Origin: a virus
Lineage: Duplodnaviria > Caudoviricetes
Reading direction: 5' to 3' (one strand)
IMG/VR virus record: IMGVR_UViG_3300033121_002101
Span: 132,532-196,531 of that record
DNA length: 64,000 bases
Shown piece by piece: positions 34,769 to 64,000 of this stretch. The translations under genes were made by a program, and so were the position numbers. Each line of letters opens with the position of its first letter. Position 1 is the first letter of the stretch. Under the pieces are notes generated by a model. The model was not told the origin of the DNA and did not search any database. It worked only from the letters and a program-made list of their open reading frames with translations.

Positions 34769-35215
34769 TCATAGAGGTCCTGTCATTCTTTCCAAGTTGC
34801 TTGGAATGATGTTGATGTTCCAAGTAACTTTTTTTGCAGATTGAAGCCCGCCATCAACATACACAGCACCAATTACAGCTTCGACTGCATCTGCAATCAT
34901 GTTGCGGTTATTGCTCAAGTTTGCATTCTTACCGAATGAGCTTCTAATATACTTTGGCAAATTGATATTTCTTGCAATGTCTGCAAGTCGCTCTGTGCGA
35001 ACAAGAGAAGCTCTAACAGTAGAAAGCCAACCTTCATCTCTGTTTGGATGGTAATTGAATAAAGCATCAGCGACTAGAATATCAAGAACAGAATCTCCAA
35101 GATATTCTAGTCGCTCATTGTTTGGCTTGCCAAGGCTTCTGTGTGTCAAAGCAAGACACAGATTGTCAATGTTATACCACCTATGGCCAAGCTGTTTGAT
35201 AAGCTCTGACAGCAT
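34769..35215 (-). CDS. rnc: ribonuclease III catalytic domain without dsRBD
   Basis: ALTHRS, NERLEYLGDSVL signature, EGWLSTVRASLV, ADAVEAVIGAVYVDGG; ends before a dsRBD. Confidence 0.92.
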   Translation of the reverse strand: MLSELIKQLGHRWYNIDNLCLALTHRSLGKPNNERLEYLGDSVLDILVADALFNYHPNRDEGWLSTVRASLVRTERLADIARNINLPKYIRSSFGKNANLSNNRNMIADAVEAVIGAVYVDGGLQSAKKVTWNINIIPSNLERMTGPL

Positions 35216-35216
35216 C

Positions 35217-35627
35217 TTAGTTACACTCGGTGATGATAGGCTTTGCGGAGGTCCAAGCAACAACATCTGCACCAGACATCACGTATGCACCAGCGAGAAT
35301 CTCAGTAACTTTATAACAATCGAATGATGCAGTATACATCATCTCATCATGACCAAGCTTATCGAAAAACAGTTTGCTATCGCGAAACAAACCAGCTTCA
35401 GAATTGACAAAAACATAAGACCTGACAACAAATCCACTGAGGTCAAGATCAAGTTTGACATCAACAGAAACATCTGCAACGAGTGGGTTTACACTGTGGT
35501 CTGCAGAAGTTACAACTGAAATACTGTCGACATGCTGCACAGCAGCATCAACATCTACATGATCATCTGCACCACCAGAACAAGCAGCTACGATAGAAGC
35601 AATAAAGAAAACATTGATGTTACGCAT
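35217..35627 (-). CDS. putative lipoprotein (paralogue of 51353)
   Basis: signal peptide with VAAC lipobox. Confidence 0.65.
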   Translation of the reverse strand: MRNINVFFIASIVAACSGGADDHVDVDAAVQHVDSISVVTSADHSVNPLVADVSVDVKLDLDLSGFVVRSYVFVNSEAGLFRDSKLFFDKLGHDEMMYTASFDCYKVTEILAGAYVMSGADVVAWTSAKPIITECN

Positions 35628-50954: not shown

Positions 50955-51026
<72 letters not shown>

Positions 51027-51352
51027 GTACACAAACAACGCATGCAAAAACAAGATCAAACGTTGCGATTGCATGCAACGATACAAAGCTCACGCATTTT
51101 TCGCAAGACAGCTTCGCCACGAACAGATCGAACATTTTCGTACGATCTGTTAATTCGCTTTAAAAGTTCTGCTGGAGCCCAGCCTTTTGTAACAATTGCA
51201 GAATTAACAGAGTTAATCGCAGTTTCTCTTGTGCTTTTATTTCTCATTTTGTGAGTTCTTTCTGGAGTTCTGTGCTCCACAGATAAGACCAATGCAATCA
51301 TTGATCACATCTATGCAACACAAAAAAGCAGCAAGAAATTATTTTTTATTTC

Positions 51353-51805
51353 TTACTGGCCGGGGCACTCAGTTGACAAGGTCCCTTCGGCAAAATCCCA
51401 AGACCCAGTTGATGCATCAAACACGCTGACATCTGCCCAGACAAAAGTCTGTTTATAGCAGTTAAAGCGTGCAGCTACAGCAACACTGTCGACTTTCTGA
51501 CAATCGATAAACACAGTAGACGGCCTTGCATCTTGCCCGGCTTCACTGAGCACAGAGAGCACAGTATGCACAACAGCTGTGTTGCGATTGACACAAGAAA
51601 GCTTGATGAACGCAGTCACATCAACCGAATTGCTGCTCGGCAGATGTGACTCAACATCAACGTGCACATTCATCGGTACATTTGCAGCATCGACGCTTGG
51701 AGTTGAATCAACAACAGAATCAACTGCCGCATCACTGTATTGAGCGTCATCAATGTCAGCGCATGCAGTAGCTGCAATCACAAAAATCAAATACTTGTTA
51801 CGCAT
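51353..51805 (-). CDS. putative lipoprotein (paralogue of 35217)
   Basis: MRNKYLIFVIAATAC signal; DAAV, DC.KV, DV..., TEC shared. Confidence 0.65.
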   Translation of the reverse strand: MRNKYLIFVIAATACADIDDAQYSDAAVDSVVDSTPSVDAANVPMNVHVDVESHLPSSNSVDVTAFIKLSCVNRNTAVVHTVLSVLSEAGQDARPSTVFIDCQKVDSVAVAARFNCYKQTFVWADVSVFDASTGSWDFAEGTLSTECPGQ

Positions 51806-51937
51806 TTTTGTTTCCCTTATCTACCAGAACTTGGTGATGAAATGAACTGCAACATAGACAATTGCAATCCAAAAAAGCAACCAAACGCAAACAAACAAAA
51901 TGTGATCAAGACGCATTGTATTCTCCTTGTTTATTAA

Positions 51938-52004
51938 CTGAAAATCTATCTCTTTCTAGACATCATGCAAACAACAAAATGTCTAGAAAGAGATAGACTA
52001 TCAG
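51938..52004 (-). repeat. 19 bp perfect inverted repeat, H2-related hairpin
   Basis: TCTATCTCTTTCTAGACAT / ATGTCTAGAAAGAGATAGA. Confidence 0.7.
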
Positions 52005-52507
52005 TCCCAGTAGGACTTACTTAGGGCAATGGCTTCCCAGTTTGCAGCCATGTCGATATAGAAATCGACACTGTTTTTGGAGTACCCTTTGAAAGAATAC
52101 CACTCTGCCATAGCAAAGTAATACTCTTTCATGTCATCTTGACTGCACCACGGCCCTGGATACTTTGGCATTTTGAACTCCACCTTCTTCAACTGCTCAC
52201 CGTCGAAGCTGCGCCACTCGTGGAAGTCGCCCTTGTCGTTGTCGTTCAAGTTGTAGACCTGCATGCCTTGTGTGTCGGGATTCCCGCCGAACACCACGTT
52301 GAGCTCGATGGCATCCATGGTCTCGTCGTCCAGCTCGGCCAGTGACCTGAGCTCGCTGATCTGGTCCTCTGTCGCCCCGCACGCCAGGGCGTAGAACCCC
52401 ATGCAGCACATGCGACCATCGGTTGGGCGCAGCAGCATTGACCCGCGGTGATTCCCTCTGAACCACTTCGACCTGACAACCGTGAACTCTGTTGCTTTCT
52501 TGATCAT
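52001..52507 (-). CDS. hypothetical protein, compositionally mosaic
   Basis: GSMLL...GRMCCMGF...QVYNLND; GC-rich 5' two-thirds, AT-rich 3' third. Confidence 0.7.
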   Translation of the reverse strand: MIKKATEFTVVRSKWFRGNHRGSMLLRPTDGRMCCMGFYALACGATEDQISELRSLAELDDETMDAIELNVVFGGNPDTQGMQVYNLNDNDKGDFHEWRSFDGEQLKKVEFKMPKYPGPWCSQDDMKEYYFAMAEWYSFKGYSKNSVDFYIDMAANWEAIALSKSYWD

Positions 52508-52541
52508 CGTATTATCCTTGTTTCTCGAGTGTAGCCAAGTG

Positions 52542-52649
52542 ACAGCCAAGAGATGGCTTGTGGGAGTTTGCGAAAACAGCCACCATGAAAATGAGCTGGC
52601 TCCGATGACCTTCTAGCCACCAGCATCCCACAAGCCATCTCTTGGCTGT
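52542..52649. repeat. 24 bp perfect inverted repeat with 60 nt spacer
   Basis: ACAGCCAAGAGATGGCTTGTGGGA (52542-52565) / TCCCACAAGCCATCTCTTGGCTGT (52626-52649). Confidence 0.85.
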
Positions 52650-52691
52650 TGGACAAGCATGTTGTCCAGCCGAGGCACCAAAAGAAGAAAT

Positions 52692-53282
52692 TTACTTCCT
52701 CTTGTAGACAAACAGACTGTCACGAATGCTATCCCATCTAGGGATATCAACAACCTCAGTACACTCCCATTCATCTCTGAGTAGACTGAAGAACTGATCA
52801 TCACCAGTACAACCACCCCAGCTCTCACCGATGTAGATGAGAGTGTTACCCTTGTATGCAGTAAGAGCATTATAGGCAAAGGGATCATCGTAGCATGGCC
52901 AGCAGAGCATCAGAGCATGCTTGCCGCCACTGTAGTACTGGAGGACAGAGGTATCACCCACTGCCACATCAGTCCACATCGTTTCGAACTCGTAGCCACA
53001 CACGTTCATCTTCGTTGTCGGATCCTTGTCGTAAGCTTCGACAACGATACCACGAGAACGAAGCAAGTAGGCCCAGTAACCAGCGCCAGCTCCCAGTTCA
53101 ACGATCGGACCGTACTTCGCGATCGTATCGAGTGCCTCGTTGTTTGGAATGGCCCATGAGAACTTCTTGACGCACATCTCTCGTGCTCTGAGCCGAGCAA
53201 GAGCACTTCCGGGCTCTCGCCAATCACGATTGCCACCATCGACAGCTTGCCAAGTGTAGATGTACTCGTTGATGACGCTCAT
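52692..53282 (-). CDS. class I SAM-dependent methyltransferase-like protein
   Basis: FSWAIP, IVELGAGAGYWA, LMLCWP, IYIGE...CTG. Confidence 0.72.
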   Translation of the reverse strand: MSVINEYIYTWQAVDGGNRDWREPGSALARLRAREMCVKKFSWAIPNNEALDTIAKYGPIVELGAGAGYWAYLLRSRGIVVEAYDKDPTTKMNVCGYEFETMWTDVAVGDTSVLQYYSGGKHALMLCWPCYDDPFAYNALTAYKGNTLIYIGESWGGCTGDDQFFSLLRDEWECTEVVDIPRWDSIRDSLFVYKRK

Positions 53283-53411
53283 TGCTTTATCTCACTCCTT
53301 CTGGAGTACCATACTCCATACAACATTCTAACTTTCGCTAGACTGCTCTATGCAGTACGATCTTGTGCGGGCAAACAACATCTTTATTGTTTGCTACATG
53401 CCAGTCAGAAC

Positions 53412-53678
53412 CTAGTTGAACTTCATTGAGTTGGCCTCACGCCAACAATCAATGACATACTTTGCTTTCTTGATAGAACATCCGCAACGCATACGGTATG
53501 CTCTTACTGCATTTACCAACTGATAGCTCTTCAGCATTTCAATCTCCATGCTGTTGAGCTCTTGGCACAATGACTGAACGTGAGCTTCACATGCATCAGC
53601 GATCATCTCAGCATCGGCTGAGCTGAGCGTCTTGACGTATGCCAGCACCATTTCGATCGTGATCATTTTAACACTCAT
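53412..53678 (-). CDS. hypothetical protein with L7/L12 C-terminal-like motif
   Basis: VNAVRAYR...GCSIKKAKYVID. Confidence 0.55.
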   Translation of the reverse strand: MSVKMITIEMVLAYVKTLSSADAEMIADACEAHVQSLCQELNSMEIEMLKSYQLVNAVRAYRMRCGCSIKKAKYVIDCWREANSMKFN

Positions 53679-53917
53679 TCTTTCTGGAGCAACATACTCC
53701 TTGCAATCGTCCAGCCACTATGAGCTGGAAAATTTCAAGCATTATGTTCTCTCTGGGATTCTTGCTGCGCAAGGGTCTGAACGATAACGCTCCGACGGCG
53801 CAAGTGAGTAGTTTCGAGGGCGCGGGGGGAAATGGAAAAAGCTCCGCGTCTACGTCTATTTCCGAGAATCCTTCCGCGGAAGTCAAAACGCCCCTCTGCT
53901 CACAATCCGAGGGCTTT

Positions 53918-54358
53918 CTAGCCCTCTTCACTGATCTTCAGCGACGCGACGAACGATTGACGCTCGTACTTGGTCACTTGTCGCATAAGCTCTGGCAGTC
54001 CGAACTCTGCGCGGAGCTCATCGATCTCTCGAGCTCTGCGGAGTACATGGTCGCCGGGCTTCGGCTTGTCTGGCATCGAGGCGATCTCCATCTCGATCTT
54101 GTCTTCCATCAAGCACAGTTGCTGCTCAACGAAGTCAGCTGCTCTGTCAGACAGCTTCAATCGAGGACTCTCGTCCTTCACGATGCAGTGTGTTGGCGGA
54201 GGCAGATGCCGTAGCTCAGTGCAGCCCTTCGACAGTGCATTCCACGACAACACGTGCAGATTCCGTGGATCGAAGTGCGTTGCTTCCTTGTGCAAGAACA
54301 ACCGAGGCTGGTCTGCACGCAGCTCTTCGACAGGAATGACGATGTACTTGTCTTTCAT
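53918..54358 (-). CDS. hypothetical protein
   Basis: follows H1 cassette; AGGAG RBS. Confidence 0.7.
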   Translation of the reverse strand: MKDKYIVIPVEELRADQPRLFLHKEATHFDPRNLHVLSWNALSKGCTELRHLPPPTHCIVKDESPRLKLSDRAADFVEQQLCLMEDKIEMEIASMPDKPKPGDHVLRRAREIDELRAEFGLPELMRQVTKYERQSFVASLKISEEG

Positions 54359-54481
54359 TTCTATTCGCTCCTTCTAGAGCTCTATGCTCCATAGGCAAGA
54401 CCAGCATTTCTACTGATCAAGTCTATGCAGCATGCCACCGTCACCAGTGGCAAACCGCATGCCGTTCGTGATCCAGTTGCT

Positions 54482-54640
54482 CTAGCTGCGGAGCATGTGC
54501 TGCTTGCCCTTGCGCACGATGCTGGCGCTCTCCTCAGCACACTGCGCCAGCGTCTTGTAGCCAGCGGCAGCCAGCTCTTTGGCATCGGCCTCGAGCTGCG
54601 TAACGGTCGGCTTCACGATCAGGTACTTGCGCATCATCAT
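54482..54640 (-). CDS. small hypothetical protein (paralogue of 32623)
   Basis: LEADAKELAAAGYKTLA; follows H1 cassette. Confidence 0.65.
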   Translation of the reverse strand: MMMRKYLIVKPTVTQLEADAKELAAAGYKTLAQCAEESASIVRKGKQHMLRS

Positions 54641-54736
54641 TGGAGTGTATCTTCTTTCTGGAGCTCCATGCTCCATACAACGTTCCAACATTCCGTTGAA
54701 CCGTTCTATGCAACTCAGAACTCTCTCTTCTGCTGC

Positions 54737-54982
54737 TCAACCAGCGTTGTTCTTCTGCAGCAGCAGACCGAGGCCCATCACGATGTGGCGCAGATCGAGC
54801 ACCATCTGCTCCGAACCGCTTCGGAACATCAGATCGACGCTGTAGTTGCAGACCTCAAGGGCCAGCACACAACAATCATCGAATTGCTGCAGACGATGGC
54901 TGATCTCATCGTGCAGCTCGGTGATCCGAGCCAGTTCGCTGTCGTCCAGACGCTCGGCTAGCGGCAGGTTTTCGTTGCTCAC
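54737..54982 (-). CDS. hypothetical protein
   Basis: GTG start overlaps stop of micro-ORF (GTGA). Confidence 0.6.
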   Translation of the reverse strand: MSNENLPLAERLDDSELARITELHDEISHRLQQFDDCCVLALEVCNYSVDLMFRSGSEQMVLDLRHIVMGLGLLLQKNNAG

Positions 54983-55032
54983 TTGCGCGCTCCGAAGAGC
55001 AGCTTGAGCCACATGCGCTTGAGAGGGGTCAT
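54979..55032 (-). CDS. 17 aa micropeptide MTPLKRMWLKLLFGARK
   Basis: follows H1 cassette; paralogue of 56211-56273. Confidence 0.65.
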   Translation of the reverse strand: MTPLKRMWLKLLFGARK

Positions 55033-55127
55033 TTTACTCGTACCTTTCCGGAGCTCTATGCTCCATGCAACGTTCCAACGTTCACCGTTGAACCGCTCCA
55101 TGCAACACGTAACTCAGAAGCAACTCT

Positions 55128-55292
55128 TCAGCCAAGTGCTTCTAGATCTGCAACAATGCGGTCCAGATCTGCTTCTGTCACATCATCACGATCGTTGCGT
55201 GCGATGTGGACAGCCTCACGACAGAAGCGCTTGGCCTCAGCAAGCTTCCAGCGCAGCACTTTGATCTCGTCTTCTGTGCTGTTCTTCTTCAT
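55128..55292 (-). CDS. small hypothetical protein
   Basis: ATG just after previous stop. Confidence 0.6.
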   Translation of the reverse strand: MKKNSTEDEIKVLRWKLAEAKRFCREAVHIARNDRDDVTEADLDRIVADLEALG

Positions 55293-55297
55293 CTCTT

Positions 55298-55531
55298 TCA
55301 CTGGTGCTGCGGGTCTTGCGGATCGATGCGACCATCCATCTGCCACGGCTTCTGCCACTCGAGCTCGAGCAGCTTCCACGCCATCTCGTCGTGCGCCGTG
55401 ATGCCGACGATCTTCGTCGTCTTCGATCTGCCATCGGGCAGAGTGCAGGTGACCGTGACGCTGGGATCCTCGACCACCTCGTCGGAAGCGGTCGGATCGA
55501 ACTTCACACCACTGAGCTGAGTGAGCTTCAC
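55298..55531 (-). CDS. hypothetical protein
   Basis: follows H1 cassette; AGGAG RBS, GTG start. Confidence 0.65.
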   Translation of the reverse strand: MKLTQLSGVKFDPTASDEVVEDPSVTVTCTLPDGRSKTTKIVGITAHDEMAWKLLELEWQKPWQMDGRIDPQDPQHQ

Positions 55532-55625
55532 AGAGATTCTCCTTCAGGACATGCCATATGTCCCACAGGCTACTCAAAGAGATGGTCACCTTGAGTAGTC
55601 TGGGGGCCACACGGGCCACGCCACC

Positions 55626-55763
55626 CTACCACACGCACTGGAAGCAGAGGCGAGGATGCTGGGCAGCGATTCGACTGGCCTTGATGAGCTTGTCGAGCCG
55701 GCGCTTCGCTTCGTACCTCGTGATCTCGAACGAACGGATGACGAAGGTCTTGCTCATGTCCAT
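55626..55763 (-). CDS. small basic hypothetical protein
   Basis: follows H1 cassette; AGGAG RBS. Confidence 0.6.
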   Translation of the reverse strand: MDMSKTFVIRSFEITRYEAKRRLDKLIKASRIAAQHPRLCFQCVW

Positions 55764-55862
55764 GGCTGCTCTGTCTCCTTTCAGGACACGAATGTATCCC
55801 ACAGGCAATCTGAAGAATCAAATCTTCAGACAGTCTGGGCGACACACTCACCCGCCAGCGCT

Positions 55863-56111
55863 CTACTCGCTGCAGTCAGCCGCCTTGTTGTGCCAGGCGA
55901 ATTCCACTGCCGCCTTGAGCGCAGCCTTCTGATTGCTGCTGACGTTCCCACAGATGAAGACCTCGGTCGGGTAGCCATCAGCACCCGTGGTCTTCTTGTA
56001 CAGCTCCCACGAGTACGTCATGGTGTTCAGCCCCCTGATGCGGATCTCGTACTTCGAGATCACGAAGTGGATGTCGATGTACTCAACGTACTGAACTTGT
56101 GCGGTGCTCAT
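55863..56111 (-). CDS. hypothetical protein
   Basis: follows H1 cassette. Confidence 0.65.
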   Translation of the reverse strand: MSTAQVQYVEYIDIHFVISKYEIRIRGLNTMTYSWELYKKTTGADGYPTEVFICGNVSSNQKAALKAAVEFAWHNKAADCSE

Positions 56112-56210
56112 CGCTCTCGCTCAAACTTTCTGGGATTGTTTTGGTCCCATAGAAAGCACGATGTTTAGTCGTGCTTTCTGTGCGGCCAACCATCTCAGTG
56201 GCTTCTGCTG

Positions 56211-56273
56211 CTATCGCTTGGTGCCGAAGAGCAGTCGAAGCCAGAACCGGCGAAGCGGAGTGTGCATCTTCAT
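56211..56273 (-). CDS. 20 aa micropeptide MKMHTPLRRFWLRLLFGTKR
   Basis: GAGGAG RBS; paralogue of 54979-55032. Confidence 0.65.
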   Translation of the reverse strand: MKMHTPLRRFWLRLLFGTKR

Positions 56274-56362
56274 GTCAGTCTCTCCTCACGTTCTTCTCCC
56301 TGTCGATCGAGCGACTAACATTAGTCGCTAAACCGATCGGGCAAGCCCGAGAGTATCCAGCC

Positions 56363-56863
56363 CTACCACACGCTCATGACGAACATGTAGTCGCTGTCGC
56401 TCATGCACGAGGCGGGACGGTCGGCCTCGCGCTCGAGCTCGAGCTCGGCGAGCCAGAGCTCCTCCTGCTCCTTCATCGCCTCGTACATGTCGGCCTCGGC
56501 GCTGTCCCAGGCGATGCGCTCCTCGCGCTCCTCATGCTCATTCATCGCCTCGAGTTGTTCGATGAAGTAATCCTCTTCGACAGACGTCATATCGAACGTC
56601 TCGAACCCGCGGGGGAAGAGGTCGGCGAACAGCAAGGACCGCGACCACTTGATCCGGCCGTGCGCGTAGCTGGTCGGCACCTTCGCCCGCGGCGGGTCGA
56701 GGAGCTGCGGCACGTCGCTGCAGTCGTCGCCGTCACCCAAGCGGGCGAGCTGCTTGCCGTACTGTCGAACGGCCTTGTTGTACTGCTTCGTGACGATCTT
56801 CTTCGCCCGCGGGAACAGCTCCCCGGCGTTCAGATCGCTGTGATACTTCGCGATGCCCTTCAT
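56363..56863 (-). CDS. hypothetical protein, basic N-half and acidic C-half
   Basis: follows H1 cassette; GC-rich codons. Confidence 0.7.
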   Translation of the reverse strand: MKGIAKYHSDLNAGELFPRAKKIVTKQYNKAVRQYGKQLARLGDGDDCSDVPQLLDPPRAKVPTSYAHGRIKWSRSLLFADLFPRGFETFDMTSVEEDYFIEQLEAMNEHEEREERIAWDSAEADMYEAMKEQEELWLAELELEREADRPASCMSDSDYMFVMSVW

Positions 56864-56991
56864 CGGCAGTCTCTTTCTGGGACGATGTATCCCACAGGCT
56901 GTCTGAAGAGTCGCCTCCTCAGGCAGTCTGGGGGTCACACCCCGAGTCGCTCATCCTCTCGGCTTGCTCGCTCGGTCCTGCAACCGCTCGT

Positions 56992-57555
56992 TCACTCCGC
57001 GGCGGGGGCGGTCAGGGCCTCGAGCTCGGCGTCCGAGAGGTCGTCACCGATGGCCGGCTCGTCGGCGACCGGCTCGCTCTGGGTCTCGCTCGGGTGCTCC
57101 TCCGACTGGGCGGCCGCGGAGGCGACCGACTGGGCGCGCAGGGAGGCGATCGCGGAGGCGAGGCTGGGCGCCGGCCCCTTCGAACCCCGGGTGCGGGAGG
57201 AGGCGCCCGGCCGCGTGGTGGCGGTCACCGAGTTGAGGGCGGTGATCGCCTTGCTCAGCCAGTCGGCCGAGACCTTGCGGAGGTCGACCCGGACGGACAC
57301 GTTGCCGTTCTCCCCGGGCTCGAGCACCTTGGCGGCGTCGGCCGGGACCTCGAGGCCCATGGCCTTGAGCTCGTCGAGCCCGCCCCAGGCCCAGCCCGAC
57401 AGGTCGGCGTGCGTGCACACGTCGGACTTGTTGGGCTTGGCGACGTACAGCTTGGCGCCCTTGGGCCCGACGAGCTGCATGTACTGCTTGTTCTCGATGG
57501 CCTGGACGGTGGCGGGGGCCGAGACGATGGCGGTGGCGATGGCGGTGGTCTTCAT
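56992..57555 (-). CDS. hypothetical protein, dispersed family A, very GC-rich codons
   Basis: GAGG RBS; ENKQYMQLVGPKGAKLYVAK...HADLSGW. Confidence 0.78.
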   Translation of the reverse strand: MKTTAIATAIVSAPATVQAIENKQYMQLVGPKGAKLYVAKPNKSDVCTHADLSGWAWGGLDELKAMGLEVPADAAKVLEPGENGNVSVRVDLRKVSADWLSKAITALNSVTATTRPGASSRTRGSKGPAPSLASAIASLRAQSVASAAAQSEEHPSETQSEPVADEPAIGDDLSDAELEALTAPAAE

Positions 57556-57649
57556 GGTCTTTTCCTCACAAGGCGGTTGTTGGGCGCAGCTCTAGTCTCA
57601 CGGCACACCTCTTGCGGGCTGCTCGAGGTCTAAGTACTGTGAGCGCTAA

Positions 57650-57870
57650 ATCCCCAATTATAAGGCAACCGCCTTATAATAATATAATATACTTGAATTG
57701 TGACCTGAATGTCACATGAAAAAATATAATTTCACGTGTCGGAAATGTCACATGAAAAAATATATTTCATGTACCGGGTTCATGTGAAAGTCACTTGAAC
57801 AGAAACTTCGCTTAACCCTCGCGCGAGACGAGGCCCATTTTTCACGTACAGTTTTATTTAAATAAACTTC
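57650..57870. promoter_or_regulatory. AT-rich non-coding control region with palindromes and a 21 bp direct repeat
   Basis: ATTATAAGGC-aacc-GCCTTATAAT (57657-57680); AATGTCACATGAAAAAATATA at 57708 and 57744. Confidence 0.65.
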
Positions 57871-57877
57871 AAGTAAA

Positions 57878-58141
57878 CTAGAGAAGGTCCTTGGTGAGCC
57901 CATAAAGCCTAATATAGGCGTCAGTATGACGTTCAGCATATGGCAAAGCTATGCTACGCGCAGCATGTGACATACCTTCTATTGCTAGACGAGCTTGTTC
58001 ATCTGTTATTTCACTCTTAGCTAGCTTATCACTTATACAGAAACAGCAAATTCCATTGTGATCAGCGCCGCCAGGGTAGTAGATGCATTCTCCAGTGTGC
58101 ATATAATCTCTCTCTATTCTATCGTTTCGTGGGTACATCAC
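57878..58141 (-). CDS. hypothetical protein
   Basis: coupled ORF. Confidence 0.55.
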   Translation of the reverse strand: MMYPRNDRIERDYMHTGECIYYPGGADHNGICCFCISDKLAKSEITDEQARLAIEGMSHAARSIALPYAERHTDAYIRLYGLTKDLL

Positions 58142-58377
58142 AGTGTATTAGAATGTGCACCCTTCCAAGTGAAACTGAATGATAGACACATCCATCCTAG
58201 TAGTGCTTCGATGCACATTATCTTGTTCAATCGAGAATCTCCATATGTAGATCCTGTAGAGCCTTGTTCAATTGAAAAACCCAGACCGAAACGTTTTACG
58301 CCACCAAATGGATGCGCAGTTTTCAACTGTACATAAACATTCCTATCTTCACCCAAATGTATCAATTTTTCATACAT
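58138..58377 (-). CDS. hypothetical protein
   Basis: coupled ORF. Confidence 0.55.
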   Translation of the reverse strand: MYEKLIHLGEDRNVYVQLKTAHPFGGVKRFGLGFSIEQGSTGSTYGDSRLNKIMCIEALLGWMCLSFSFTWKGAHSNTL

Positions 58378-59321
58378 CAGCCAATGCTCCGCGGAATGGG
58401 TACATCATACAGCTCAAACAAGCTGTCAGTATTACACAGTGGCATTCTCTGTTTCCTTAACCACATTGGTATAAGCAGAGCAGCGACAATACCCTTATCT
58501 GGTGGTTTTTCATATTCCTTACGAATCGCAAGCAACAATGAAATCTCAGAATCTTTGATGGCAAATTCTGCGGCGTTATTGTTTTGTTTCGATTCACTTA
58601 CATGATTTGCAATCGATTTTTGCAAAAGAGAAATTTTTCCAGTAAATGAACGCTGCGTTCTGCATTTGAATGCATTTGGAGAAATATAGACTTGTTCCAA
58701 ACTTAATCCAAGATACAAATGATTCATTCCGCAAGAACAGATGGCCGCATAGTCATCACAATTTAGTTTTGCAAGATCTCTTATTTCATCGTCATGCGCA
58801 TACCGATACTCAGGAGAATTTTTGTTTGCTTGCTCTCTTTTCTGATTATTTTCTGTATGCACAATATTCTTCTGACTGTTCATAAGATCGGTAATTCGTT
58901 TCTTTAAATCACCGACATTTCCACACCAGGATATCGGCGTTTTGCATTTGCATGTAGCGCCGCCTCCGAATGAAACTTCTTCAATATATTTTCCAGAATA
59001 CGAATGATTCATTCCGCAAGAGCAAACTGAAATATACGAATTATCTCTTAGCAAAGAAATACTTCTCATATCGTCTGTGTATGGATACCGATATAACACT
59101 AGACTCTGCAGATCACGAACCGTTCCTACCCAAGAACTTTCTGTTTTGCATTTGAACGGTGATCTTGTTTCCAACACGCACAAAATATCTTCTTTTCCGG
59201 GATTACAAAATGAATGATTCATTCCGCAAGAGCAAATTGCGACGTATTCATCATTTGGTAAAGCAGTTAATGACCTTACGTCATCTAGGCCTGGAAACCG
59301 ATAATCTGTAAAGAAGTTCAT
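58377..59321 (-). CDS. protein with three CSCGMNH repeat domains
   Basis: YR...DD.R....L..D.Y...CSCGMNH...KC.T..S..G x3. Confidence 0.75.
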   Translation of the reverse strand: MNFFTDYRFPGLDDVRSLTALPNDEYVAICSCGMNHSFCNPGKEDILCVLETRSPFKCKTESSWVGTVRDLQSLVLYRYPYTDDMRSISLLRDNSYISVCSCGMNHSYSGKYIEEVSFGGGATCKCKTPISWCGNVGDLKKRITDLMNSQKNIVHTENNQKREQANKNSPEYRYAHDDEIRDLAKLNCDDYAAICSCGMNHLYLGLSLEQVYISPNAFKCRTQRSFTGKISLLQKSIANHVSESKQNNNAAEFAIKDSEISLLLAIRKEYEKPPDKGIVAALLIPMWLRKQRMPLCNTDSLFELYDVPIPRSIG

Positions 59322-59330
59322 TGTTTCCTC

Positions 59331-59690
59331 TTAAATGATCGTTACCATGTGCTGGCCGTTGTGAAGTGTCGATAGATGAAACCACTCACCATTTGCATTG
59401 TTGAAGTTTTCATCTAGAAACTTTTTGATTTCACCACCAATCAGCACTTGATCTTCATCAATTGTAAGCCAGCCTGGATTCCGCATTTCTTCGAATTCAA
59501 ATGCTTGACAACATCTGTAAAGAGAATGCGCAAGTATATTCCAGTATTTTACTACCCAGTGTTTTGAAACATAACTTGTAATATCTTTTGCCATGTTTTC
59601 TAGAATTCTCTGCCCAAGCATACTAAAATCGTTATCGCCGAACACGATCAAAACATCTGGTATTCTCTGAATTTCTTGAACTTCTTTCAT
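59331..59690 (-). CDS. hypothetical protein
   Basis: FGDNDF motif. Confidence 0.65.
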   Translation of the reverse strand: MKEVQEIQRIPDVLIVFGDNDFSMLGQRILENMAKDITSYVSKHWVVKYWNILAHSLYRCCQAFEFEEMRNPGWLTIDEDQVLIGGEIKKFLDENFNNANGEWFHLSTLHNGQHMVTII

Positions 59691-59742
59691 TTTGCACTCT
59701 CTTTTTGCACGAAATGTAACTCAGAGTTTCATATTGTAAATT

Positions 59743-60090
59743 TTAATCTCTCAAAAACATGCAATCTGATAAAAACGCGCCGCCTTCATGAGCGTTCATT
59801 ATAGGATACCAGCTATTGTATTTGTTACTGTAAGCATACATTTCTTTATCGCATGCTGTGTTTAGAAAATACGCAAGATATCCTAGCACTGTAAAAGTAT
59901 GAAAATATGAATGTTGCCCGTCATTGTCATACCAATCAATAGAAGCAACAAGATCATTCATTTCATCTTGACTGTTACTGATTTTGACGCCGTTTGGAAA
60001 AGTATCTTCAAACCAGCTTATACCACTTGCGCACGCATTGATTTTTTCTAGATGCTTAACCGTCAAAATCATAGACTTGTATTTCGCCAT
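59743..60090 (-). CDS. hypothetical protein, family B
   Basis: ACASGISWF...FPNGVKISNSQDEMNDL. Confidence 0.7.
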   Translation of the reverse strand: MAKYKSMILTVKHLEKINACASGISWFEDTFPNGVKISNSQDEMNDLVASIDWYDNDGQHSYFHTFTVLGYLAYFLNTACDKEMYAYSNKYNSWYPIMNAHEGGAFLSDCMFLRD

Positions 60091-60091
60091 T

Positions 60092-60379
60092 TTACTTTCC
60101 TTTGATGACTTCGCCAAGCTTTTCAGATATTCTTTTGATATCGTGAAAATCGAGTGTTACAGAATTGAATGAATCATTAAATGTGAGTTCACGAATCTCT
60201 GCAAATGAATGTTCACCATGCTCAATCACACGGAATGATGACAGAGGTCTATCATAAAACTGAAGGGTAATCCATGGCGGTCCGCCATTTGGGTCAGGAG
60301 AACAACACCAGAGTGTCTGTAGCATACCACAAACGACACATATGTCTGTCTCATCACCAGGATCATTGTCGCATATCAT
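60092..60379 (-). CDS. hypothetical protein
   Basis: GGAG RBS. Confidence 0.55.
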   Translation of the reverse strand: MICDNDPGDETDICVVCGMLQTLWCCSPDPNGGPPWITLQFYDRPLSSFRVIEHGEHSFAEIRELTFNDSFNSVTLDFHDIKRISEKLGEVIKGK

Positions 60380-60418
60380 TTTATTCTCCGTTGTATTATT
60401 CGCCTGAATGTTCTATCA

Positions 60419-60655
60419 TTAGTAAATCCGAGCTCCGCAATCTTCGCATTCACTGTGACTATAACCGCCGCCAGCGTAACCAGGATCATAGTGTTTTGTT
60501 TTCTTATCATGATTACACATTGATTGATTTGCTTTATCAAGCCCTTCTAATGCTGACATCATTGCTTTTAATTTTTTAAATGCAATTTTTATTTCTTCAC
60601 GATTTTTTGTAACATTTTCTGGAGACAAATCTATATCTGGAATCTCTGCTTTCAT
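60419..60655 (-). CDS. hypothetical Zn-ribbon protein
   Basis: CNH...CEDCG. Confidence 0.6.
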   Translation of the reverse strand: MKAEIPDIDLSPENVTKNREEIKIAFKKLKAMMSALEGLDKANQSMCNHDKKTKHYDPGYAGGGYSHSECEDCGARIY

Positions 60656-60664
60656 AGTTTGTTC

Positions 60665-60961
60665 TCAATCTTCAATGTGCAATCTGCTTTGTTCGACAAT
60701 AGTATCACGATAAAAACCACACAACTTACAGCAATCAGTAATATTTGATTGCTCAAAATAATGTCGCGGCATAAAACCCATGCAACCAGTTGCTATAGCA
60801 CAATTTATACTCGCGATTATCTCTTCTGTATTTTCTGGTCTTGGGCATTTATTGCAGCGCTTTCCGCCATCTGGATGTTCCCAAGCAACTGGTCTATGGC
60901 ATAAGTCACATGTCTGTGCTTTTTGCCATTTTGTGTTTTTCATTGATTTATTATTATTCAT
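60665..60961 (-). CDS. Cys-rich hypothetical protein
   Basis: CxxC pairs. Confidence 0.55.
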   Translation of the reverse strand: MNNNKSMKNTKWQKAQTCDLCHRPVAWEHPDGGKRCNKCPRPENTEEIIASINCAIATGCMGFMPRHYFEQSNITDCCKLCGFYRDTIVEQSRLHIED

Positions 60962-61125
60962 CGTTGATATTCACTACATTGTACTTTGAAATGATTACGT
61001 CTAATGCTTTTAGCAATTCATCAATAGACTTAACAACCAAATCTGGTTTTGTATTACGCTGAGTGTAGCGTAATCGTTCCATTAGTGGAATAAGTGCACT
61101 CAATTCTTTTTCTATATTTTGCATG

Positions 61126-61515
61126 TTAATCATTAATTTTGAATGGATTGTAAGAAGCAGCAAGACCAATTGCACCAGCTAATACAAAATAATCAGGCTC
61201 TATTATAAACTGTGGAATTTTTTGTAGTGACCACGGAAATATTTGTTGGTGTTCGTAGATATATGCTATTGCAGACCATTGTGATGACGTTCTACAATAT
61301 TTGTCGATCCACACAGTATAACCAAAAAGCATGAAGTTCAACAAATTATTCGTCTTTTGATCATTTGCCGCCATCATCGATCCATCTTGATTCCTCGAGA
61401 TTTTTTGTTTTGACTGCTGTGAGTAATGCATCCCATGCCATGCTTGGTCTATTTCGTACGACGTTTGCAATCCAATGTTGTTGATTGCGTTTTGCAGCAT
61501 CGATAAGTTCGTCAA
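61126..61515 (-). CDS. hypothetical protein
   Basis: packed ORF. Confidence 0.5.
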   Translation of the reverse strand: MTNLSMLQNAINNIGLQTSYEIDQAWHGMHYSQQSKQKISRNQDGSMMAANDQKTNNLLNFMLFGYTVWIDKYCRTSSQWSAIAYIYEHQQIFPWSLQKIPQFIIEPDYFVLAGAIGLAASYNPFKIND

Positions 61516-61574
61516 CTAAACTCATAGTTCACTATCTATTTGCTCAACACGCACCCAGTTACGCTCGGCCGGCT

Positions 61575-62984
61575 TCACTTGCCCACCGTCCCGTCGCAGC
61601 TGCCGGTGTGCCCTTTGGCGAGAGCGCACGGTGGCCCCTGGTCCCCGCGGCGCGTGTCCTTGCCGCACACCTCGGGCGTCACGGGGATGCCCGCGGCGGT
61701 GAGAGTGGCGCGCATGGCGGCGACGCGCGGCTTGCGATGGCTGTTTAGGATGCAGTCCCAGCCGAACAGCTCGCCGCCGACCTCGTACACCGCATCCGAT
61801 GCCGCGTTCTGGTAGTCGCGCGCCACCGCCTCGGGATCCACCGGCGCGACCAGCGTCGCCTCGAGGCGGGCGAGGACGGCGCGGATGCCGTTGCGGTCGC
61901 TGCTGTCGATCGGTGGACACTGCTCGCCGTGGTCGATGCCGTCCGTTCCGACGACGTAGAACAGGCGGATCAGCTCATCCTCGCTCACCCCCGCGAACAC
62001 CGGGTGGGCGGGCGGCGACGTGGGCGGGGCGCCGAGGGAGGCGAGGGCGCGGATCATGGCATCGACGCGAATCGGTCGCTGCGCCTCCGGGAAATGATCG
62101 AAGCTGGAGTTCGGGATCGCCGCGTAGTATGCGCGGCACAGCTCCTCGGCTCGGTCCTGCGCTGGCAGCGTGACGGGGCCAAGGTGAGCAAACACCTTGC
62201 GCGCCAGCCCCGCATGCCCGTGCGCGTCGAGCGCCGCCGATAGCCTCGCCTCGTCCAGCACCGGCCGGGCTTCGAGCTCGGCGACGCGGGTGGTGAGGCG
62301 CGTCTCCTCACGCCACAGCCGCGCTGCCTCGCGCTCCCATAGCTCGGCGCACTCGCGGGCGTTGCGCGGCACGATGCCGTCGGGGCCAACCTGGCGGCTG
62401 GCCAATGCGATATCGCACGAGCCGTTGCATGGGGTGCGGCTCCGCTCGTTCGCGGCCTGCTCCAGCCCGGCGATCCGGGTGCGGCACGCGGCGAAGTGGG
62501 CGCGTTCGGAGGCGAGGTCGGCAGCGAGCATGCCGATTCGCTCGACGGGTTGCAGGGCGCGACCACCGTCACGCAGCGCCACTGAGCCATAGCGAGCGGC
62601 GTCATCGTCGGCGTACGGCACTACGTCAGGAACGCCGGCATCACGCAGCGCGTTCCGCACGCCAGTCAGCATCGAGTCGTATCGGTCGACATGCGCGCGC
62701 AGGACTGACACCTCATCGGCGTGCGTCTGTGCGGCTACGGCGATTCCAGAGCTGACGTCGCGGCGAAACTCGTCGAGCTTGGCGCGCACCTCGGCAAGCT
62801 GCGCGGTCATCTCGTCACGCCGCGCATGCAACGTCGCGCACAGGTCCAGCGCCGCGCCGAGCAGCTCCCGGACGGCCGACGGGGCGGCCTCGTCGAGCAG
62901 CGCGTCGAGCACGTCGAGCCGGTGCCGGTCGTGGGCGGCGCAGGCGGTGGCAAGGGAGGCGGTGATTGTTGGGTCGGTCATCAT
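61575..62984 (-). CDS. GC-rich hypothetical coiled-coil protein
   Basis: GAGG RBS before ATG 62984; ORF track extension to 63239 overlaps the next gene. Confidence 0.7.
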   Translation of the reverse strand: MMTDPTITASLATACAAHDRHRLDVLDALLDEAAPSAVRELLGAALDLCATLHARRDEMTAQLAEVRAKLDEFRRDVSSGIAVAAQTHADEVSVLRAHVDRYDSMLTGVRNALRDAGVPDVVPYADDDAARYGSVALRDGGRALQPVERIGMLAADLASERAHFAACRTRIAGLEQAANERSRTPCNGSCDIALASRQVGPDGIVPRNARECAELWEREAARLWREETRLTTRVAELEARPVLDEARLSAALDAHGHAGLARKVFAHLGPVTLPAQDRAEELCRAYYAAIPNSSFDHFPEAQRPIRVDAMIRALASLGAPPTSPPAHPVFAGVSEDELIRLFYVVGTDGIDHGEQCPPIDSSDRNGIRAVLARLEATLVAPVDPEAVARDYQNAASDAVYEVGGELFGWDCILNSHRKPRVAAMRATLTAAGIPVTPEVCGKDTRRGDQGPPCALAKGHTGSCDGTVGK

Positions 62985-63009
62985 GGTTCCTCGTCGGTGG
63001 GGTAGGTGT

Positions 63010-64000
63010 TCAGGTTCGTGCCTGCATCGCTCGCAGTGATGCAGGCGCGATCCCGTAGGTCCAGGCGTTGGCGGCGAGCGCCGTTGTGAACTCGGGCGGC
63101 ACCGGCAGCGCGAAGTGACGCCCGGTCGCGCACCGGACGCGCACGAAGCGGCTGCCCGGCGCGCCGGGCAGGTCGACCTCGACGAGCGTTCCGATCTGTG
63201 GGTCGGCGTCTTCGTCAATCGTCCGCGCGCCCAGTTCACTGAGCGCGGCGTCCCATCCGATGATCTCCATCCCGGCGCGTCGCTGCTCGACGTTCGTGAC
63301 GGCGATCACCTCACGCGCGGTCGGTTTCGGACCGATGATCCAGTGCGCCGGCACTGTCACGCCGTGCCAGTGGTACAGCGACCATCCGTCGCGCCACGCG
63401 AGCGACGGTCCGTCGGCGCAGTGCGGGCGGCACTCCTCGTCGCGGTTGATCACCGTCGGGAAGTCCGACACGAGGCAGAACTTGGCGTGCATGTAGCGTG
63501 GACCGCCCTCGATCGCCGCGCGCTCCCACCACTGATACTTGTCGTGTTGGGGCAGGCGCAGGCCGAGGACGTCACGCGCGGCGGTGAGGTAGCTATCGTA
63601 CTGCGCCCAGAACGCGCCGCCCTGGTACGCCGAGTACCAGCCGGATACCGCTTCGAGCATCGCGGCTGCGGGCGCGCCCGTATCACGCTCGATCTCGAAG
63701 GCAATCAGGCGAGCCCATCCTGGCGCCAAGTCGTAGGTGGCGTCGGCGGCGGCGGTGGCGTCGCTGGTGGCGGAGTAGGTGGCGTCGCGGGTGGCGTTGA
63801 GGGTGGCGACGTCGGTGGCGACGGCGGTGGCGGAGTAGGTGGCGTCGCGGGTGGCGTTGAGGGTGGCGTTGAGGGTGGCGACGTCGGTGGCGGAGTAGGT
63901 GGCGTCGCGGGTGGCGTTGCGGGTGGCGGAGTAGGTGGCGTCGCGGGTGGCGTTGCGGGTGGCGACGTCGGTGGCGGGGTAGGTGGCGTCGCGGGTGGCG
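63010..64000 (-). CDS. DUF6745-like protein with N-terminal ATxx tetrapeptide repeats (5' end outside window)
   Basis: RPHCADGPSLAWRDGWSLYHWHGV.VP, NVEQRR..MEIIG, VRCATGR.FALPVPP, AWTYG; frame open to window edge. Confidence 0.75.
   Translation of the reverse strand, partial: ATRDATYPATDVATRNATRDATYSATRNATRDATYSATDVATLNATLNATRDATYSATAVATDVATLNATRDATYSATSDATAAADATYDLAPGWARLIAFEIERDTGAPAAAMLEAVSGWYSAYQGGAFWAQYDSYLTAARDVLGLRLPQHDKYQWWERAAIEGGPRYMHAKFCLVSDFPTVINRDEECRPHCADGPSLAWRDGWSLYHWHGVTVPAHWIIGPKPTAREVIAVTNVEQRRAGMEIIGWDAALSELGARTIDEDADPQIGTLVEVDLPGAPGSRFVRVRCATGRHFALPVPPEFTTALAANAWTYGIAPASLRAMQART
63735..64000. repeat. imperfect 12 bp coding tandem repeat
   Basis: GGTGGCG+5 nt units encoding ATRD/ATYS/ATLN/ATDV/ATRN on - strand. 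Confidence 0.9.

Follow-up and report, generated by a model that had tools for sequence, protein, structure and literature searches.

What is the function of the structured elements that separate the small genes of this phage, and is it as DNA or as RNA that they act? The elements lie between the cistrons of one long operon in the window (the whole stretch of 64,000 nucleotides analysed), which forms part of a 196.5-kb contig. The phage is of the T4 type and a distant relative of T4 (gp23 family present). Its closest capsid relatives share 31-43% identity and have Flavobacterium, Microcystis and Rhodothermus as hosts. The host-takeover and anti-defence genes of large phages are housed in long early operons made up of small orphan genes. 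How expression is set for each gene of such operons, and how genes enter and leave them, is poorly known beyond T4 and T7.

The element family and its operon

A preliminary description of the locus had claimed nine intergenic elements between 53295 and 56940, and all nine are present at their positions on the minus strand. A tenth copy of the same build is found outside this range at 51245-51325, and a degenerate eleventh relative retains the 3′ half only (approximately 52609-52632). The ten copies in the window (E0 to E9) are all on the minus (mRNA) strand and fall within 5.7 kb. At least three sequence subtypes had been proposed; the copies sort into three, namely a GGAG type, a CCCAGAC type and the unique E8. 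E0 sits in an AT-rich part. The features of the locus are as follows.

34769..35272, minus strand: phage RNase III gene, 167 aa, catalytic domain, no dsRBD
51245..51325, minus strand: E0, extended hairpin of 25 bp (51325-51268), short hairpin, GAAAG box, ATG 51247; z -5.96
52560..52660, minus strand: degenerate or rearranged relative of the family, preceding a 182-aa gene and inside a 24-bp perfect inverted repeat; z -7.75
53280..53361, minus strand: E1, extended hairpin of 22 bp with GAAA loop, short hairpin of 6 bp, GAAGG box, ATG 53282 (196-aa gene); z -7.92
53676..53751, minus strand: E2, the most divergent of the GGAG-type copies, extended hairpin of 25 bp, short hairpin, GAAAG box, ATG 53678 (88-aa gene)
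54356..54433, minus strand: E3, extended hairpin of 19 bp with GAAA loop, short hairpin, GAAGG box, ATG 54358 (146-aa gene)
54638..54725, minus strand: E4, extended hairpin of 26 bp with four purine-purine 1x1 mismatches, short hairpin, GAAAG box, ATG 54640
55030..55115, minus strand: E5, extended hairpin of 25 bp, short hairpin, GAAAG box, ATG 55032 (opening a 17-codon ORF that overlaps the GTG of a 91-aa gene)
55529..55614, minus strand: E6, CCCAGAC-type extended hairpin of 25 bp, short hairpin of 6 bp, GAAGG box, GTG 55531
55761..55849, minus strand: E7, CCCAGAC-type extended hairpin of 24 bp, short hairpin of 6 bp, GAAAG box, ATG 55763
56109..56189, minus strand: E8, unique subtype, hairpin of 19 bp, short hairpin of 4 bp, GAAAG box, ATG 56111
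56126-56135, minus strand: 10-nt motif of E8, one side of the indel joint in run X2
56861..56941, minus strand: E9, CCCAGAC-type extended hairpin of 23 bp with GCGA loop, short hairpin, GAAAG box, ATG 56863
56873-56882, minus strand: 10-nt motif of E9, opposite side of the indel joint in run X2
57676..57788, minus strand: AT-rich operon head with four overlapping sigma70-like sites

A covariance model (R1) recovered the ten copies only, with nothing further across the whole 196.5-kb genome. The 3′ motif of the elements (YRTGGRR, 5-16 nt, CYNGAARG) has ten matches in the genome, all on the minus strand from 51281 to 56896, whereas shuffled genomes average 0.66 matches and never exceed four. An Rfam search matched no family except tRNA. 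In IMG/VR, three element patterns gave no match or a single chance match within a gene, and protein-anchored scans gave none or one distant giant-virus match. Two scans of JGI metagenome contigs for relatives and a blastn search of 7 kb against GenBank phages returned no match.

The genes of the array are orphan or nearly so, and the GC3 of neighbouring genes ranges from 0.30 to 0.98 in a phage of 35% GC. Homologues of the 146-aa gene downstream of E3 exist on Logan and ENA contigs. The 187-aa and 166-aa proteins have almost none, which leaves a recent capture of GC-rich genes from a sampled GC-rich organism unsupported. A chimeric assembly, considered on account of the GC jumps, was rejected because a Logan contig from the run that is the likely source covers 50998-61848 with zero differences, and because the 57600 boundary is also spanned, at approximately 99% identity, by contigs of other studies.

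Upstream of the array, the only sigma70-like sites are the four overlapping ones at the operon head. On the minus strand from 52600 to 57600 there is no internal sigma70-like promoter site, and no -35/-10 match occurs inside any element. By a sequence criterion, the same interval has no U-tailed terminator and the stems of E1 to E9 are not followed by a T run. The GC-rich stem with a U tract that characterizes intrinsic terminators is not seen; in place of the U tract, the long stems are followed by a short hairpin and then a purine run. The terminator scan matched only the inner stem of E0 (51306-51287), where the T residues are those of the hairpin's own 3′ arm. These scans bear out the lack of sigma70 boxes and U tails noted earlier.

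Two overlapping helices on the mRNA strand

Each copy is one long imperfect hairpin, the extended hairpin, in which 19-26 bp are interrupted by 1x1 mismatches. Every copy also has the short hairpin, whose stem shows compensatory changes at positions 3 to 6. The short hairpin's 5′ arm and loop double as the 3′ strand of the lower stem. As the upstream flank pairs with this same arm and loop, the long and short helices are mutually exclusive. The two hairpins of the preliminary description both exist, but they are not consecutive modules, since they overlap and exclude each other. Just above the lower stem, an invariant purine-purine mismatch adjoins an invariant C-G pair. Following deletion of the 5′ arm in silico, the short hairpin appears in the best fold of eight of the ten copies and the leader is open.

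Three lines of evidence support selection for structure on the mRNA strand, namely covariation, an excess of G-U over A-C pairs, and sense folds of much lower energy in the GGAG-type copies. Fold z-scores on the sense strand range from -1.9 to -7.9, and in seven of ten copies no shuffle folds equally well. Alignment A2 has 86.4% of its cells paired; shuffled versions give 65.3% (0/500), and sliding the partner gives 31-44%. Two-sided (compensatory) changes occur at 20 of 25 pairs, and the stem covariation score is 0.679, compared with 0.275 in shuffles (0/500) and approximately 0.1 in slid controls; as these values were computed on paralogues of one genome in three subtypes, the counts overstate the number of independent events. 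Stems that differ in sequence yet keep pairing, as had been claimed, thus exceed both controls. Both helices covary, and the lower stem does so with the loop of the short hairpin, which is otherwise unconstrained.

The G-U pairing reported on the coding strand was also recovered, with 31 G-U cells to 10 A-C cells (binomial p = 0.0015). This preference for the sense strand points to a structure that acts as RNA. In E0, E1, E3, E4 and E5, the sense fold is 6.6-19.5 kcal/mol more stable than the antisense fold. For E8 and E9 the antisense fold is the better one, and the sense z-score of E9 is only -1.9.

The distance from hairpin to start codon is only about 30-40 nt. A GAARG box precedes the starts, as expected of the ribosome binding site it had been taken for, but its distance to the start codon varies from 2 to 23 nt (counted by eye on the sequences) and it is therefore not simply such a site. 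Alternatively, the box and the conserved base motif could be there for a sequence-specific protein, or for another type of promoter.

Indels in relatives and comparison with known systems

Relatives were compared through assembled contigs of public DNA runs. A close relative in run X2, a sludge metagenome, is without exactly 56126-56872, and its contig joins 56125 to 56873. The missing span comprises one gene, a micro-ORF and one hairpin set. The joint falls at the identical 10-nt motif common to E8 and E9; as only these ten letters are shared, a 31-mer assembler would not have been misled here. Other joins end at 55044 (the end of the E5 box), at 55121 (6 nt from the base of E5) and at 52004 (the base of a perfect hairpin). 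Among the joints shown, a single one is exact, a further two meet an element on one side, and the others on neither. The proposal that gene changes are bounded by the elements thus holds for the E8/E9 indel and by half for two further joints, but not for the remainder, which lie elsewhere. In runs X2 and X4, a contig join with a shorter side of 27-38 nt only suggests that some relatives have an E5-like element immediately ahead of a tRNA gene.

RNase III sites between the early genes of T7 and in the early RNA of SP82 and SPO1 are a precedent for signals of this kind, and the array is this phage's own form of an established phage device. Similar to the signals of T7/T3 (R0.3 to R1.3) and SP82/SPO1, the elements are repeated imperfect hairpins of about two helical turns between early cistrons, with structure kept on the mRNA strand and a purine-rich leader downstream. 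A hairpin of about 20 bp or more, intercistronic in a polycistronic RNA and conserved in structure on the RNA strand, is asked of an RNase III signal, and the hairpins here are of 19-26 bp, so placed and so conserved. In contrast to those signals, with which no sequence similarity was seen, the elements have symmetric 1x1 purine-purine mismatches rather than one large internal loop, a second and mutually exclusive hairpin that overlaps the 3′ strand, and a phage-borne RNase III that lacks a dsRBD. Cleavage, in this array, is predicted only.

Promoter-early stem-loop (PeSL) cassettes are known in T4-like phages (Arbiol 2010, PMC2839356; Comeau 2014, PMC4122927). Shared with these are a T4-type phage, a block of small variable orphan genes, elements just before start codons and relatives that differ by indels. 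As in PeSLs, where recombination between copies adds or removes the intervening genes, one relative here (X2) lacks the unit between two copies, with the crossover in a short conserved stretch before the leader. However, PeSLs carry a sigma70-like promoter (-35, about 17 nt, -10) between stem-loop and Shine-Dalgarno (SD) sequence, and the elements contain no promoter, so they are not PeSLs in the strict sense. The analogy drawn in the preliminary description fails on this defining feature. The elements also differ from PeSLs in having no U-tailed terminator by the sequence criterion, and in their long (19-26 bp), covarying and strand-biased stems with two overlapping helices.

The start-associated sequences (SAS) of Cluster K mycobacteriophages have upstream 17-bp inverted repeats, the ESAS (Pope 2011, PMC3203893), and their function was still awaiting test in 2025 (PMC12699233). 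Both systems combine an inverted repeat, a short asymmetric conserved motif with outer symmetry of the GGG..CCC type and then the start codon, in a single orientation, at non-structural genes only and with lineage-specific repeat subtypes. The SAS, however, is a fixed 13-mer with an SD sequence 3-7 bp from the start, whereas the box here is 2-23 nt away and of other sequence; ESAS arms share a consensus, whereas the inner stems here vary and covary. Integron attC sites likewise are imperfect hairpins that fold from one strand and separate single-gene units. Unlike attC, the elements are accompanied by no integrase in the genome, share no R''/R' core sites between copies, and are located upstream of a start codon with the leader included rather than downstream of the cassette ORF.

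Proposed processing signals and rival explanations

The reading preferred here, for which the chances are judged to be about even, is that the elements are signals for intercistronic RNA processing and 5′-capping, with recombination joints as a by-product. One long early transcript would start in the AT-rich region near 57.7 kb, with the elements as its cis-acting RNA signals. Each signal would first fold as the extended imperfect hairpin, about two helical turns in length, a likely target for a double-strand-specific endonuclease (host RNase III, phage RNase III or both). Cleavage would strip the 5′ strand and the freed 3′ strand would refold into the short GG..CC hairpin. This hairpin would then cap and stabilize the 5′ end of the downstream message, with the unpaired purine-rich leader and start codon behind it. 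The predicted outcome is a set of 5′-capped single-gene messages. As every gene boundary carries the same short motifs, phage recombination may occasionally cross over between them, so that whole gene units would be gained or lost.

A phage RNase III had been mentioned in the preliminary description, and its catalytic domain is indeed encoded, without a dsRBD; it is a candidate processing enzyme for the elements. RegB was not found in a search that lacked a positive control. The earlier interpretation of the elements as processing sites and joints is thus partly supported, by the mRNA-strand structure, the operon layout, the RNase III gene and the one unit-precise indel, but not in its PeSL analogy or in the bounding of all changes by elements.

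It is conceivable, though unlikely, that the elements are translational switches or operators which act without cleavage, built on three overlapping pairings: the upstream flank with the 5′ arm and loop, the 5′ arm with the 3′ arm and, in some copies, the CUCC of the 3′ arm with a GGAG further downstream. The ribosome of the upstream gene would melt the lower stem, allowing the short hairpin to form and freeing the downstream start, or a phage repressor would bind the short hairpin and shut off the early genes. Two covarying, mutually exclusive helices suit such a device, as does the upstream stop codon located 12-14 nt before the hairpin base in E4 to E7. The short hairpin also borders directly on the leader, as known translational operators of T4 do. 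In the best folds of E1 and E3, CUCC is paired with GGAG just downstream, but only four of the ten copies could form this pairing, and the suggested E5-like element before a tRNA gene would not be explained by translation control. A more elaborate version, which is quite improbable, combines such a switch with cleavage. The three-way choice of pairing (flank with loop, 5′ arm with 3′ arm, 3′ arm with SD) would be read by the dsRBD-less phage RNase III at the purine-purine mismatch and C-G pair, and its cut would have two effects, the separation of the messages and the activation of the gene downstream. Phages of very different GC would also exchange single genes through this module as a portable joint, which, if true, would account for a series of orphan genes whose GC3 extends from 0.98 to as low as 0.30 in a phage of 35% GC.

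A primary role at the DNA level, as PeSL-like or attC-like joints that move gene cassettes with the RNA structure incidental, is held to be very improbable. The exact E8-to-E9 span lost in X2, the joins ending at 55044, 55121 and 52004 and the wide spread of GC3 among neighbouring genes all point in this direction, and PeSL crossovers map between the -10 box or SD and the ATG (PMC2839356). Only one of the joints shown, however, has an element on both sides, and an excess of G-U over A-C with covarying variable stems is not expected of plain homology patches. The tyrosine recombinase PF00589 is absent from the 196.5-kb contig (control positive in 14/14 genomes), and T4-type recombination needs no special site. 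The least probable reading makes the short hairpin and GAARG box a non-sigma70 promoter for each gene, with the long hairpin ending or insulating the upstream transcript. It draws on the conserved block of about 24 nt at 2-23 nt from start codons, on the possible copy before a tRNA gene and on the combination of stem-loop and promoter in PeSLs (PMC4122927). The missing -35/-10 matches and U tracts count against it, and it explains neither the flank-loop covariation nor the sense-strand G-U bias. A single-subunit RNA polymerase was not found in the phage, by a search without positive control; a hairpin promoter of the N4 type was dropped, no gene for such a polymerase having been found, and a sigma54-type -24/-12 arrangement fails on spacing by inspection.

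The array shows that T4-type phages can use promoter-less structured joints instead of the promoter-terminator PeSLs. It is a clean experimental case, with ten copies, two overlapping covarying helices, a candidate phage nuclease and a natural indel that places the crossover within a 10-nt motif.

Small shares of the stretch occur in the RNA runs X18 to X20.

Structure and conservation of the elements

The intergenic hairpin element of this array is real, well defined and lineage-specific. The preliminary description gave nine copies on the minus (mRNA) strand (E1 to E9), whose positions hold as given, and a tenth of the same build (E0, 51245-51325) lies in the AT-rich part, beyond the range first stated. 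A relaxed 3′ motif occurs 10 times in the whole genome, all on the minus strand within 51281-56896, compared with 0.66 in shuffled genomes. No further copies were detected in 196.5 kb with a covariance model made from the ten copies, and no Rfam family matched the elements. The CCCAGAC-type elements (E6, E7, E9) are located in the GC-rich half of the array and the GGAG type (E0-E5) in the other half.

In minimum-energy folds all ten copies form a single imperfect hairpin, extended to 19-26 bp and interrupted by two to four, mostly symmetric, 1x1 mismatches. Several of these hairpins are capped by GNRA-type tetraloops. A short hairpin of 4-6 bp is present in 10/10 copies, its 3′ end directly abutting an NGAARG box. 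The long and short hairpins had been described as successive modules, a view that must be abandoned: the flank upstream of the supposed 5′ arm forms base pairs with part of the short hairpin, namely its 5′ arm and loop. The two structures overlap and are therefore mutually exclusive. The stem junction carries a purine-purine mismatch in all ten copies, followed by an invariant C-G pair. The mismatch is G-G in the GGAG type and G-A or A-A in E6 and E9; E7 and E8 fold with one unpaired G at this position. The box does precede the start codon, as expected of the ribosome binding site originally proposed, but its distance to the start varies from 2 to 23 nt; it is thus a component of the element and not a fixed Shine-Dalgarno site.

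In a MAFFT alignment of the ten copies, 86.4% of extended-stem cells are paired, compared with 65.3% in shuffles (0/500 as high), and sliding the partner strand along the alignment reduces this to 31-44%. Two-sided changes are found in 20 of the 25 stem pairs and the covariation score is 0.679 observed against 0.275 in shuffles, although such counts overstate independent events, the copies being paralogues of three subtypes within one genome. The stems vary in sequence yet keep pairing, as first noted. The best argument for the extended form comes from covariation between its lower stem and the short-hairpin loop, a loop left unconstrained by the short hairpin itself. Within the short hairpin, compensatory changes occur at stem positions 3 to 6.

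A palindrome maintained purely as duplex DNA is expected to contain equal numbers of G-U and A-C cells. The stems contain 31 G-U versus 10 A-C (p = 0.0015). Sense folds are more stable than antisense by 6.6 to 19.5 kcal/mol in the GGAG-type E0, E1, E3, E4 and E5; the sense strand is also favoured in E6 and E7, and the antisense strand in E8 and E9.

The phage genome and the operon

The source contig of 196,531 bp, of which the window is the final 64 kb, belongs to an uncultured virus and has an estimated completeness of 96%. The major capsid protein is of the T4 type (Gp23 family, E = 5.7e-77), and the closest cultured relatives, phages of Flavobacterium, Microcystis and Rhodothermus, show an identity of only 31-43%; this is thus a distant T4-like phage. 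The genome is ~35% GC, while the block 52000-57600, with all genes on the minus strand, climbs from ~50% to 70%. An assembly chimera was rejected for this block, as a contig assembled independently from the probable source run matches 50998-61848 with zero differences. The GC/AT boundary is spanned at ~99% identity by contigs of two further studies, one on wastewater (54708-58118) and one on an estuary (55863-57756).

The last 2.4 kb (61600-64000; ~71% GC) encodes a DUF6745 protein at 63010-63729. The probable source run yields fragmented contigs over this part, and in other runs its depth far exceeds that of the phage, so this end is common to other abundant organisms or a tangled repeat. The AT-to-GC boundary at 61600 is spanned by one sludge contig.

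Features bearing on transcription and putative processing of the array
57676-57788, minus: four overlapping sigma70-like sites, in the AT-rich stretch directly upstream of the first GC-rich gene
57650-57870: AT-rich non-coding stretch holding a ~21-nt repeated unit and abutting the sharp boundary with the 73% GC first gene
34769-35272, same strand as the array: phage RNase III of 167 aa, catalytic domain without a dsRNA-binding domain

The AT-rich stretch is likely the operon start. On the minus strand no sigma70-like site follows the head sites until 52538, and no stem with a T run was found between cistrons, in agreement with the earlier reading that the elements lack sigma70 boxes and U tails; the array thus has the look of a single long transcript, with the elements as its punctuation. 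The RNase III anticipated in the preliminary description is indeed encoded. The upstream stop codon lies 12-14 nt from the hairpin base in E4-E7 and 22-167 nt in the other copies.

GC3 declines along the operon (51056-57555, minus) from 0.98 (187-aa gene) through 0.92 and ~0.84 to 0.55, 0.42 and 0.30. The most GC-rich genes (187 and 166 aa) have almost no homologues beyond this phage lineage, which gives no sign that they were captured from a GC-rich organism among those sampled. Two similar minus-strand micro-ORFs have in common a motif that is basic and hydrophobic (P-L-K/R-R, W-L-K/R-L-L-F-G): one of 17 codons (54979-55032), after E5 and overlapping the GTG of a 91-aa gene, and one of 20 codons (56211-56273), between a separate hairpin and E8.

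Three further minus-strand structures were observed. A 22-bp perfect hairpin (51937-52005; -44 kcal/mol, z -9.6) carries an NGAAAG box copy in its 3′ arm, followed by an AAGGAG site and a small ORF. At 52535-52680, two smaller hairpins lie within a perfect inverted repeat of 24 bp (-77 kcal/mol, z -7.75); this repeat includes a degenerate 3′ half of the element near 52632, and the type-2 motif in one arm suggests that part of an element was duplicated in inverted orientation. The unusually long 239-nt gap before E2 (53679-53917) has no clear ORF and contains a GC-rich hairpin directly after the stop codon of a 146-aa gene; it may be what is left of a gene unit, or it may encode a small RNA.

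Contig joins in relatives

Relatives were examined through contigs of four public runs aligned to the stretch, and the region is hyperplastic. In one contig from a sludge metagenome, 56125 is joined to 56873, and ten letters at the join fit either side. E8 and E9 both carry these letters, unchanged, as a motif at their 3′ end, so this relative lacks exactly one unit, made up of the E8 hairpins, the 20-codon ORF, a further hairpin and the 166-aa gene. A shared stretch of only ten letters would not produce a false join in 31-mer assembly. The same relative has 103 unlike letters in place of E1, between conserved genes. A rearrangement join from the same sludge run ends at 52004, the base of the 51937-52005 hairpin. 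Another join, seen in two studies, connects 55044 (the end of the E5 box) to the base right before tRNA-Lys, the shorter side being just 27-38 nt. A further join has its end at 55121, which is 6 nt away from the E5 base. The proposal that elements act as recombination joints thus stands for at least one element-to-element event (E8/E9), but not all joins are bounded by elements.

The tRNA-Lys (anticodon UUU; 50955-51026, minus) lies directly downstream of the array. Contig depth over it is very high in all runs, and it is therefore common to many organisms. Judged from the aligned contigs, it appears to be placed elsewhere in the array in relatives.

Proposed role and related systems

The element fits best as an RNA signal. 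The extended hairpin matches phage RNase III sites in size and placement, and its cleavage would lead to loss of the 5′ strand. Removal of this strand in silico leaves the short hairpin at the new 5′ end in 8/10 copies, with the purine-rich leader open, which would give 5′-capped single-gene messages. Cleavage and capping would amount to the processing model first suggested, in which the short hairpin is now assigned a more precise function.

The main rival is a cleavage-free switch, in which a terminating ribosome or a repressor gates translation; a GGAG downstream offers the CUCC 3′ arm an alternative pairing partner in E1, E3, E6 and E7. A primary role at the DNA level is less likely, since pairing is strand-biased and no tyrosine recombinase was found in the genome by a search whose control worked. 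The elements may also be promoters of an unfamiliar type.

The element is a new version of a known phage device, and gains interest from the crossover that was mapped and from its two helices, which overlap and both covary. The SAS/ESAS units of Cluster K mycobacteriophages, whose function is untested to date (PMC3203893, PMC12699233), have a similar layout, but their motif, spacing and degree of stem conservation are different. PeSLs are alike in location and recombination behaviour, their crossovers falling between the -10 box or SD and the ATG (PMC2839356), although the present elements lack the promoter and terminator features that define them (PMC4122927). Closest in manner of working are the RNase III signals of T7/T3 and SP82/SPO1, cleavage being putative in the present elements.
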